Origin: Klebsiella phage vB_KpnM_Tauntaun_ER47
Sequence record: PP738783.1
Direction: 5' to 3' (one strand)
DNA: 64,000 nt
The position numbers were made by a program, and so were the translations under genes. Positions 36,736 through 38,759 of the stretch are shown here, piece after piece. Position 1 is the stretch's first letter, and the number at the start of each line of letters is the position of its first letter. The notes under the pieces were generated by a model that saw only the letters and a list, made by a program, of their open reading frames with translations, was not told the origin of the DNA and made no database searches.

Positions 36736-36929
36736 ATATGTTAGAAAAATCTTTTGAATTAGAAACCGCTCTATTTCCAGAGCGGTTTTATCTCCACAAC
36801 AATTTTCTTGAAGAAAAACATATAGTTACTATGAAAGATGTTGAGGAAGCATTCAAAGATAACCCTATAGAGTTGACGCGAATCAAGAACAACAAAAGTT
36901 CTGTTTGGTTCCTCGAAAAAATCTATTGA
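36732..36929 (+). CDS. hypothetical protein
   Basis: 65-aa ORF. Confidence 0.4.
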   Translation: MNMLEKSFELETALFPERFYLHNNFLEEKHIVTMKDVEEAFKDNPIELTRIKNNKSSVWFLEKIY

Positions 36930-36954
36930 CCGAAATCCATAAATACAGTAAAGT

Positions 36955-36990
36955 AGCCCATGTAACGAAACGTGGGCTTTGTTTTTATTT
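36955..36990 (+). terminator. rho-independent terminator (AGCCCA-tgtaacgaaacg-TGGGCT plus TTTGTTTTTATTT)
   Basis: GC hairpin plus T-run; the loop contains ACGAAACG. Confidence 0.6.
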
Positions 36991-37002
36991 GAGGAACAAT
37001 AA

Positions 37003-38712
37003 ATGATCACTGAATCCAAAATGACTTATCAGGAAGCACTGAAAGTTTTGGGCGCAACTGGTAGCGAAACCAGCGCCGAAATGTCCAGACTCTTCAAACG
37101 CGCATCCTTACGCAATCACCCCGACCGTGGTGGTAGCAATGAATTAATGCAGAAAATTAACCAGGCTTACGACGTCGTTACAAAAACTGGGCCTAGTGGC
37201 GCACGTTCTGAGACTGCTGGTGATGTTCGCGCACGTTATGCACGTCAAAAGAAAGAATGGGAAGAAAAAGTTGATGCTTACTTTGTAGTGGCGAAAAACT
37301 ATTTCAGCACCAAATTTAACGCACAGGAATTTGCGGAATACTTCACCAAATACACTGGATTGCCTACCACTTTCAAACAGGAAGTAACAAAAGGTAGTCA
37401 CGGTGTTTATGCTTCGTTCCGTTTCACTTCTGGTGATGCTTACTTTGATTTCGGTTTCAACTGCACCCCTCCGAATGGACAAGGGTTAGCCGCTCCGGAT
37501 TCATCTGCACTGGGTAACGTTTCTGTTAGTACCTTTGTACTGGTTGGAACTAAAAAACATAAAATGGCAAGCCGTGATTATCAATGGGGCAAAAACCCAG
37601 ATAAGATCACTCCGGAAAGCCTGTTCCCGTCTAAAAAACTGGAAAGCATTTTCAGCCCTGTACAGAAAAATATCAAATACAAACGTGCTGATTACCTTGC
37701 ATCATTCCGTAAGCTGTTAGGCGCTGACATTAGCGGAAACGATATCTTTGTTGAAGTTGGTACACTGAAAGTTCGTTTCTATCGTCATGTAATGATGCGT
37801 AAAGGTGCGTATGTGTTTAGCGCGGTGTATGATCCTGCTGTATCTAAGTATCGTCCGGCTGCACAACTTCGCGGAACTATGTTAGAAGACGAGGACGGCG
37901 CTTGCCTGGATATGATCGTTGATACGTTCAAAGAGTTGCAGAAACTGAAACCGAGTGTTCAAGGCGTTGTGAACGCGATCGATAAGATGAACGCAGAGTT
38001 TGCAGCGGGACATCGTTCAGCATCTTTTGTTAAACGTGTAGCTGCTCAGGAAGCCGCGCCGAAGCCAGAAGAGAAGCCAAAACGCACTGTTAATCGTATC
38101 GGTAAAGAGGAATACTTCGCAGCACTAAAAGATATTGGTGCTCGTGTAATGCCTACCAGCGGTTATGTTGAATTTGATAACGGCGCTGGTGTTACTATCA
38201 ACTTCAAGCGTATTGTTGTAAACCGTAAAGCATACTACTCATTCAGTAGCTTTGATTTCATGTACTCTGGTCAGAAACACATTGAGTGGTTGAAAGGAAT
38301 CGATATCGCAGAAGATACCAAAGGCGCAAGCATTAGCCTACTCACTGATACTCTGAAATCTTTACGTGGGATCTCTGACTGGAACACTGTTAAGAGCGCT
38401 TTAGATCAAATGAATTCTAACTTCAAGGCGGGTAAATTCTCCGCACCTCATGTGAAGAAGGAAGCAGAGCAAAAAGCACCTAAACAGAAAGACGAAATCG
38501 GCGCACAGCCTACCAAACCACAGGCGGCTAAGAAAGATACACCGGAAGTGGAAAAATCACAGGCTGTTCATGCAGCACGTGAGAAAGCGAATATGAACAA
38601 CACTATTCGTAAAATGATGACTATGTTAGTCAAAGCACAGCGCAAAGACACTCCGGAAGATATCAAGAAGGAAGTTGATGCAGCAATTCAATTGTGGCGC
38701 TTGACTTACTAA
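37003..38712 (+). CDS. J-domain (DnaJ-like) protein with tandem internal repeats
   Basis: N-terminal J domain with HPD motif (SLRNHPDRGGS..LMQKINQAYDVV); two about 130-aa repeats (YLASFRKL..VFSAVYD ~ YFAALKDI..SFSSFD; VVNAIDKMNAEFAAGHRSASFVKR ~ VKSALDQMNSNFKAGKFSAPHVKK); Lys-rich C-terminal tail. Confidence 0.7.
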   Translation: MITESKMTYQEALKVLGATGSETSAEMSRLFKRASLRNHPDRGGSNELMQKINQAYDVVTKTGPSGARSETAGDVRARYARQKKEWEEKVDAYFVVAKNYFSTKFNAQEFAEYFTKYTGLPTTFKQEVTKGSHGVYASFRFTSGDAYFDFGFNCTPPNGQGLAAPDSSALGNVSVSTFVLVGTKKHKMASRDYQWGKNPDKITPESLFPSKKLESIFSPVQKNIKYKRADYLASFRKLLGADISGNDIFVEVGTLKVRFYRHVMMRKGAYVFSAVYDPAVSKYRPAAQLRGTMLEDEDGACLDMIVDTFKELQKLKPSVQGVVNAIDKMNAEFAAGHRSASFVKRVAAQEAAPKPEEKPKRTVNRIGKEEYFAALKDIGARVMPTSGYVEFDNGAGVTINFKRIVVNRKAYYSFSSFDFMYSGQKHIEWLKGIDIAEDTKGASISLLTDTLKSLRGISDWNTVKSALDQMNSNFKAGKFSAPHVKKEAEQKAPKQKDEIGAQPTKPQAAKKDTPEVEKSQAVHAAREKANMNNTIRKMMTMLVKAQRKDTPEDIKKEVDAAIQLWRLTY

Positions 38713-38759
38713 TCAAATGAACTATAATGGGAACTGTTAACGCAGTTCCCTTTTTATTT
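38701..38759 (+). promoter_or_regulatory. consensus promoter TTGACT-N16-TATAAT immediately followed by terminator hairpin GGGAACTGTTAACGCAGTTCCC plus T-run
   Basis: read directly from the sequence; follows the J-domain gene and precedes the next gene. Confidence 0.55.

Follow-up and report, generated by a model that had tools for sequence, protein, structure and literature searches.

What is a gene for a J-domain (DnaJ-like) protein doing among the replication genes of a T4-like phage? This question is raised by a 64,000-nucleotide stretch of Klebsiella phage vB_KpnM_Tauntaun_ER47 (record PP738783.1; henceforth the window, i.e. the whole stretch analysed), which comes from a KP15/Matisse-like Klebsiella myovirus (Straboviridae, Slopekvirus). 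An original prediction, made from the letters alone, had described here an open reading frame (ORF) encoding 569 amino acids (aa) at 37003-38712 on the plus strand, and the ORF is present exactly as described. It is, with near certainty, the Slopekvirus ortholog of Rki, a J-domain protein of phage RB43, in the full-length Rki-058 form also found as Rki16 in phage RB16. The explanation of the gene that we prefer, with a probability of roughly 85%, is that this ortholog of Rki acts early in infection by interfering with host DnaK and sigma-32.

An ortholog of Rki

Dozens of KP15/Matisse-like phages share the region 36900-38800 at 99.7-99.9% identity. The 569-aa protein shows no sequence difference from KP15 gp055 (D5JF99) and is equally 100% identical to the corresponding ORFs of Matisse, Miro and many others, while the KP27 record labels its own copy as similar to KP-KP15_gp055. 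The coding sequence (37003-38712, plus strand) is defined by the ORF list, by identity to KP15, by the read-through translation of its RB43 counterpart and by PHROG 7739, which matches the protein along its full length. Both the gene and this exact protein have been in the literature since 2012, when Perrody et al. (PLoS Genet 8:e1003037, PMC3486835) described RB43 ORF057w as Rki, a 237-aa J-domain protein of a T4-like phage, and named KP15 gp055 as an in-frame fusion of Rki (ORF057w) and ORF058w. The KP15/KP27 genome paper does not mention the J gene.

Compared with the read-through translation of RB43 057w+058w, the window protein is 73% identical from end to end (566 aligned positions). The counterpart in RB16, a phage of E. 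coli and not of Klebsiella, is a single fused ORF of 565 aa (Rki16, UniProt D9ICB9) with the same locus, the same type of promoter and the same architecture (J domain, modules A, B and C, and a tail); its identity to the window protein is about 73%, as estimated via the RB43 read-through, whose DNA agrees with that of RB16 at 98%. RB43 Rki itself (Q56BZ1) is orthologous over residues 1-241 and has in common with the window protein the J domain and its HPD tripeptide, the long helix that follows, module A, the early promoter and synteny. The internal duplication of module B as module C, and the module boundaries given below, are not described in Perrody et al.

The J domain occupies residues 8-62 (37024-37188, plus strand), as judged from Pfam, an alignment of homologs, a profile search and an AlphaFold2 (AF2) model. 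Its HPD tripeptide is formed by H39-P40-D41 (codons at 37117-37125), and the model places helices at residues 9-16, 24-37 and 46-60, with the HPD loop between the latter two. When a profile built from 21 homologs was compared with PDB, the only significant matches were to J domains (E values from 7.5e-9 to 1e-6), among them Tim14 at 7.5e-9 and E. coli DnaJ at 5e-8 to 2e-7; Tim14 was the best match in structure as well as in sequence. The original prediction had proposed a J domain and suggested HPD conservation as a check. The tripeptide is invariant in 21 of 21 close homologs, and together with G43-G44 it is invariant in all 37 distant relatives (21-47% identity to the window protein), each of which by itself gives a match to PF00226 (best E=2.3e-12). 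The profile matches and the invariant HPD mark the 569-aa protein as a J-domain protein, and the predicted structure agrees as regards helices I-III.

The Pfam scan of the protein and of its family found no zinc-finger (DnaJ_CXXCXGXG) or DnaJ_C family, and no Gly/Phe-rich (G/F) stretch was seen after the J domain in the translation, by eye and not by computation. The features that define class A and B DnaJ proteins (G/F region, zinc finger and C-terminal substrate domains) are thus lacking, and the remainder of the model consists of unrelated alpha+beta modules. The protein resembles instead the class C (type III) J-domain proteins, such as Tim14/Pam18, DjlA and the polyomavirus T antigens, in which likewise the J domain with its HPD is the only DnaJ-like part and is joined to an unrelated specificity region; the SV40 T antigen is also a conceptually similar case of viral hijacking of Hsp70. 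With the class A/B proteins DnaJ and CbpA of E. coli it has in common the J domain and, as demonstrated for Rki, HPD-dependent stimulation of the DnaK ATPase. Unlike them, it has no zinc finger or C-terminal substrate domain by Pfam, and Rki is monomeric, non-generic and toxic. In a 2026 review Rki is still cited as the characterised phage J-domain protein, the only one whose function has been shown by experiment, and phage class C J-domain proteins are described as having no other known domain.

The J gene was matched in 173 phage records at the DNA level and in 206 by protein search, most of them labelled hypothetical. Its identification as Rki provides a functional annotation for this mostly 'hypothetical' gene, many of whose carriers are Klebsiella phages considered for therapy. 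That the product might be a virion structural protein, as the 'tail protein' or 'tail length tape-measure protein' labels of a few records would have it, is barely credible: such labels are exceptions beside the more than 170 records reading hypothetical or DnaJ, and the protein carries a J domain, resembles no T4 structural protein, is made early in RB43 and is encoded among replication and nucleotide-metabolism genes. The few GenBank records concerned (PP993148, PP889503 and PP889464) place one of these labels, or 'dihydrofolate reductase', at or overlapping the J gene; in PP993148 the 1.9-kb match spans several features, and the label may be that of a gene next to it.

Probable interference with DnaK and sigma-32

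What the protein may do follows from experiments on its orthologs (PMC3486835). Rki binds DnaK by way of its J domain, which can replace that of DnaJ in chimeras, and stimulates the DnaK ATPase in an HPD-dependent manner, as controlled with an H38Q mutant. The protein is a monomer that neither supports luciferase refolding nor prevents aggregation, does not replace DnaJ, CbpA or DjlA in vivo, and is toxic only when DnaK is present. It raises the levels of sigma-32 and of heat-shock proteins, stabilising sigma-32, which it pulls down only in the presence of DnaK. An RB43 delta-rki mutant is rescued by mutations in dnaK or by extra sigma-32. Rki16, made during RB16 infection, also stabilises sigma-32, but more weakly; it is less toxic and complements RB43 delta-rki less efficiently than Rki. 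The 058w part weakens the activity and toxicity of Rki and is needed for neither, and the authors stated its function to be unknown. In Rki we have an example of how, by way of DnaK, a phage can reprogram the heat-shock response of its host. Our literature search found no follow-up work on its mechanism.

These results bear on the possibility that the phage simply carries a generic DnaJ-like co-chaperone, raising the capacity of the host to fold phage proteins. The J domain is of a functional type, and that of RB43 Rki substitutes for the one of DnaJ. Against this stand the failure of Rki in refolding, in preventing aggregation and in replacing the three host proteins, its DnaK-dependent toxicity upon expression, and the lack of the DnaJ zinc-finger and C-terminal families (Pfam) and of a G/F stretch (by eye) in the window protein; we regard a generic role as very unlikely.

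The interference with DnaK and sigma-32 that we prefer would proceed as follows. Early in infection, host RNA polymerase would start at the sigma-70-type promoter of the J gene and transcribe this gene alone, up to a terminator. The N-terminal J domain would dock on host DnaK via the HPD loop and stimulate its ATPase. The long helix and module A would confer a non-generic specificity, such that the complex acts on DnaK-sigma-32 and sigma-32 is no longer passed to FtsH; sigma-32 would then accumulate, the heat-shock regulon would be induced and phage growth helped. Modules B and C, the motifs at their ends and the C-terminal hairpin would modulate this activity and may add binding specificity. 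The identity, orthology, domain architecture, duplication, promoter conservation and synteny of the gene are direct observations, whereas the functions of Rki are transferred by analogy and would probably hold for the Klebsiella phage protein; the role given here to B and C is likewise inferred. The original prediction had already suggested recruitment of DnaK, which agrees with membership of the J-domain family and with the binding shown for Rki, and had guessed at interference with sigma-32, which matches the experiments on RB43 Rki and RB16 Rki16 (PMC3486835).

Several points weigh against this explanation. Taken as a single sequence, the window protein matches the Pfam family DnaJ (PF00226) at residues 14-60 with 20.9 bits (E=4e-4), below the gathering threshold of 27.8 bits, and it is the family that carries the assignment. 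Structure prediction, another check put forward in the original prediction, gave helices I-III with the HPD loop, but helix IV of the canonical J domain is not evident in the AF2 model, where helix III is followed by a low-confidence linker and the long helix 72-104. The experiments were made with the proteins of RB43 and RB16. Modules B and C and the tail, more than half of the protein, are the part in which it differs from the characterised Rki, and they have no assigned function. The strong sequence conservation of the B/C part (94% at residues 335-345) suggests that it may do more than dampen Rki, and the conservation of the 058w part argues for a positive function, be it regulation or added binding specificity.

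Repeated modules and truncated forms

Downstream of the J domain, the AF2 models show the long helix (residues 72-104) and an alpha+beta module A (105-221), which together span 37216-37665 (all parts of the protein being on the plus strand). Helix, module A and J domain make up most of the characterised 237-aa RB43 Rki, in which proteolysis delimited a C-terminal domain at residues 76-237 (PMC3486835). Then follows module B (222-345; 37666-38037), defined by alignments and the AF2 model and ending in AGHRSASFVKR. A conserved linker (38038-38085; VAAQEAAPKPEEKPKR...), predicted to be disordered (predicted local distance difference test, pLDDT, below 50 at 352-363), joins it to module C (362-486; 38086-38460), a duplicate of B by alignments that ends in AGKFSAPHVKK. 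The protein continues with a linker rich in K/E/A/Q/P (487-518; 38461-38556), disordered by pLDDT (below 50) and composition, and closes with a helical hairpin (519-569; 38557-38709; model helices 516-546 and 551-568), which is confident in AF2 and kept in full-length homologs. The original prediction had seen in the rest of the protein two tandem copies of one module and a lysine-rich tail. The duplication of B and C bears this out, but the description omitted a non-repeat region of ~150 aa (helix 72-104 and module A) and the C-terminal hairpin; similarly, the K-rich (K/A/E/P/Q) stretch exists as the disordered linker 487-518, only that a folded hairpin (516-568) then follows.

A BLAST comparison of the whole protein with itself returned only the identity match, and the significance of the repeat was assessed instead by segment-versus-segment Smith-Waterman alignment with 1000 shuffles. 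Module B (~222-345) against module C (~362-486) scored 124, compared with 27.6 +/- 4.5 for the shuffled sequences (z=21, 0/1000). BLASTP aligned the two with 31% identity over 122 aa (E=1e-13) and hhalign with a probability of 98-99% (E from 1e-14 to 4e-19), which gives the tandem repeats firm statistical support. In the AF2 model each of them consists of a helix, a beta-meander and two helices. Module A was considered as a third, divergent copy, its order of secondary structure being alike (helix, then beta-meander), but neither Smith-Waterman nor hhalign detected any similarity to B or C and it was kept distinct. In the prediction, modules A and B form a single packed unit of good confidence (predicted template modelling score, pTM, 0.78). 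Neither has a Pfam match, both match only members of their own family in the BFVD viral library, and their structural matches are weak (3-15% identity); as modelled, they appear to have no strong structural relatives.

The best conserved stretch of the whole protein is AGHRSASFVKR (335-345), with a mean pairwise identity of 94%, compared to 76% for the J domain. The linker region that follows (346-366) reaches 74% although predicted to be disordered, and AGKFSAPHVKK (476-486) is a weaker repeat counterpart closing module C. AGHRSASFVKR looks like a short linear motif; that it might be a pseudo-substrate of DnaK or a latch between modules is speculation. The motif with its linker (335-366; 38005-38100) and its counterpart (38428-38460) are both absent from the one-module forms of 349 aa. 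These forms, found in the same locus of other T4-like phages, lack module C.

Comparison of RB43 with its relatives bears on which form is the original one. The TAA that ends Rki (RB43 codon 238) aligns with D242 of the window protein (GAT, nucleotides (nt) 37726-37728) and with GAA in RB16. It falls ~15 residues into module B, just past its first helix, and the flanks are conserved and in frame on both sides. Over the locus (RB43 9138-10835) the two phages differ at 34 of 1698 nt (98% DNA identity), one of the differences being the change from GAA to TAA. What follows the stop in RB43 is annotated as ORF058w, whose start is an internal Met (residue 261) within a beta-strand of module B, without a Shine-Dalgarno sequence upstream; both in toxicity and in activity the truncated Rki exceeds the fused form. 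In 176 of the 206 phage records the protein is undivided over at least 80% of its length. Because the RB43 stop codon lies inside module B, the simplest reading of these sequences is that full length would be the normal state and the 237-aa Rki a nonsense-truncated allele, rather than the RB16 and KP15 proteins being 'fusions'. Aeromonas phage 65 may represent a second, independent truncation, ~10 codons from that of RB43 and again in an old reference stock. With respect to phage 65.2 (2 nt differences in 1014; phage 65 locus 601-1615) it carries one extra G (nt 703), so that the reading frame changes just behind KKADY, where module B begins, and the product has 244 aa and not 337 aa; a sequencing error is possible.

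A profile was searched against 1.84 billion cluster representatives (50%-identity clusters), with 386 matches at E<=1e-10 and 83 at E<=1e-30. The best 150 of the 386 are almost all of ~340-360 aa, consisting of J+A+B only, and at least ~140 of them are near-full-length. Four homologs had been listed in 2012 (PMC3486835). Well beyond these, the J+A+B form of ~345 aa appears to define a large and mostly metagenomic phage family, whose cultured members are T4-like Straboviridae of enterobacteria, Aeromonas and Vibrio, together with one Desulfovibrio phage. Since the best family matches cover only J+A+B, module C and the tail would be a lineage-specific extension that arose by duplication of module B.

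Two members of the wider family have unusual contexts. A J+A-type match was found at residues 975-1261 of a 1442-aa 'SprT-like domain-containing' protein in a Luteolibacter metagenome-assembled genome (a member of the same cluster has 1931 aa), so that beyond T4-like phages the J+A module also forms part of large proteins with several domains. The second, a divergent J+A+B member of 345 aa, comes from a phage-like metagenomic contig of 59 kb. There (positions 10001-14236) the gene for a phage GroEL (Cpn60, 545 aa) follows three genes downstream, with a DNA methylase encoded between the two; the contig also encodes a peptide deformylase.

Could A, B and C recognise a specific client, from phage or host, and bring it to DnaK for folding, assembly or remodelling, so that the stabilisation of sigma-32 is a side effect of occupied DnaK? 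In class C J-domain proteins, specificity for client or location is usually determined by the C-terminal region (PMC3486835), A and B are predicted as one packed unit, the J+A+B architecture is kept in at least ~140 of the best 150 cluster representatives, and in one metagenomic phage the J-A-B gene is followed, three genes on, by a GroEL gene of the phage itself. However, no client is known, extra sigma-32 alone fully rescues RB43 delta-rki and the truncated Rki, devoid of B and C, surpasses the fused form in activity (PMC3486835), and the structural matches remain at 3-15% identity. Such a targeted co-chaperone seems to us rather doubtful.

Returning to an Rki ortholog that interferes with DnaK and sigma-32, we tentatively propose, as a possibility short of even odds, that the full-length J-A-B(-C) protein is the native form, that RB43 Rki is a hyperactive nonsense fragment of it, and that B and C, with AGHRSASFVKR and the linker, constitute a phage-specific regulatory or client-binding unit. 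If this were true, the B/C unit might be a DnaK pseudo-substrate or an autoinhibitory latch and might define a large class of phage J-domain proteins, mostly from metagenomes. The basic picture is unchanged by the truncated-allele status of Rki, the internal duplication with its conserved motif and the widespread J+A+B core, which provide pointers for probing the mechanism.

Transcription signals and genomic setting

A promoter scan located a sigma-70-type early promoter, TTGACC-N17-TAAAGT, at 36926-36954 (plus strand, as are all the signals given here). The -35 box, the -10 box, a motif in the spacer and the GAGG ribosome-binding site are common to the window and to the region upstream of RB43 057w. 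In RB43, the early promoter of rki is TTGACA/TAAAGT, its transcript appears 5-8 min after infection on northern blots, and western blots also show early expression (PMC3486835). The original prediction had instead taken CATAAATA for a late-promoter-like element and the gene for a possible late gene. This octamer, at 36938-36945, lies inside the 17-nt spacer of the early promoter. The window holds 3 copies of it, both strands counted, roughly the number that chance is estimated, without shuffling, to give an 8-mer in 128 kb of AT-rich DNA; the canonical T4 late promoter TATAAATA has 0 occurrences in the window. The late reading was consequently rejected in favour of the early sigma-70-type promoter conserved with RB43 rki.

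The promoter is followed by a terminator-like hairpin (9 bp, 5 G-C pairs) with a T run at 36955-36988 (hairpin 36955-36978), closing the upstream unit of 46, the HNH gene and 45.2, and by a Shine-Dalgarno GAGG at 36991-36994, 8 nt before the ATG, which is annotated as ribosome-binding site in Matisse and conserved in RB43. At the other end, a second hairpin with T run closes the J-gene unit at 38729-38760 (hairpin 38729-38750). Both were found by a scan and are annotated in KP27 and Matisse, in agreement with the two rho-independent terminators of the original prediction. Because it has its own promoter and flanking terminators, the J gene is predicted from sequence to be an autonomous single-gene transcription unit of the early class, and in this respect the earlier proposal of an independently transcribed unit holds. 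Another sigma-70-type promoter, TTGACT-N16-TATAAT (38701-38728; 11/12 matches; found by the scan and annotated in KP27), serves the downstream unit of small ORFs and overlaps the last codons of the J gene.

The hairpin directly adjoins the -10 box at both ends of the J gene. Transcription from that promoter would begin inside the 5' arm, and its transcript would therefore not form the hairpin and would escape termination, while read-through from upstream would be stopped. The segments 36926-36994 and 38701-38765 have the same layout, i.e. promoter, hairpin and then a shared TTTTTATTTGAGGAA carrying the ribosome-binding site. This repeated layout looks like a reusable 'stop read-through, restart here' module.

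The gene order 47-46-45.2-J gene-three small ORFs-frd-td-nrdA is the same in the window, RB43, RB16, KP27, Matisse and a metagenomic T4-like phage, in the last of which a 349-aa relative fills the slot. In Aeromonas phages the homolog is located elsewhere. Accessory genes of T4-like phages commonly change place between genomes. The J gene was present in all the relatives examined, and its GC content (0.44-0.45) is like that of gp47 and nrdA. At the gp46/gp45.2 junction, ~270 bp upstream of the J gene, lies a gene for an HNH-AP2 homing endonuclease (36181-36735, plus strand). The original prediction rightly placed the J gene between gp46 and frd, but it does not come right after the HNH gene, as a 65-aa gp45.2 homolog (36732-36929) intervenes. 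The HNH gene is found in the window, in Matisse and in RB16 (86% identity, same 46/45.2 junction) and is missing from KP27, KP15 and RB43, although the J gene is there in all three. Its presence/absence polymorphism is shared by two genera and does not depend on the J gene.

A mobile, recently acquired and late-transcribed cassette associated with the homing endonuclease, as the original prediction had considered, would account for the nearby HNH gene and for terminators on both sides. It is nonetheless highly improbable and was rejected: the J gene keeps the same slot across genera with a core-like GC content, the HNH gene varies and is inherited separately, always between 46 and 45.2 where it occurs in RB16 and Matisse, the promoter is of the early type with no TATAAATA in the window, and flanking repeats were not noticed, no search for them having been made.

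One more alternative is that of a counter-defence factor which occupies DnaK or competes with DnaJ, thereby blinding chaperone-dependent sensors (such as the DnaJ-dependent bNACHT25) or toxin-antitoxin systems. Early expression and a location in a hyperplastic region of small accessory ORFs would suit such a role, and a 2025 paper citing the bNACHT25 work raises it for phage J-domain proteins as a general possibility only. On the other side, PADLOC, a library of defence rather than anti-defence proteins, gave no match, neither for the J protein nor for the small ORFs beside it, no experiment links the protein to defence, and sigma-32 explains the RB43 phenotype. We consider this role quite unlikely and retain interference with DnaK and sigma-32 as the explanation of the gene.

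A search of 36000-39700 with Rfam gave 0 matches. Between the J gene and frd, three small ORFs (38727-39543; PHROGs 5175, 7189 and 7436) occupy the positions of RB43 059w-061w, a correspondence that is positional only. The first of them has a listed start at 38727, inside the terminator, whereas its annotated start is at 38772, after a GAGG ribosome-binding site at 38760-38763.

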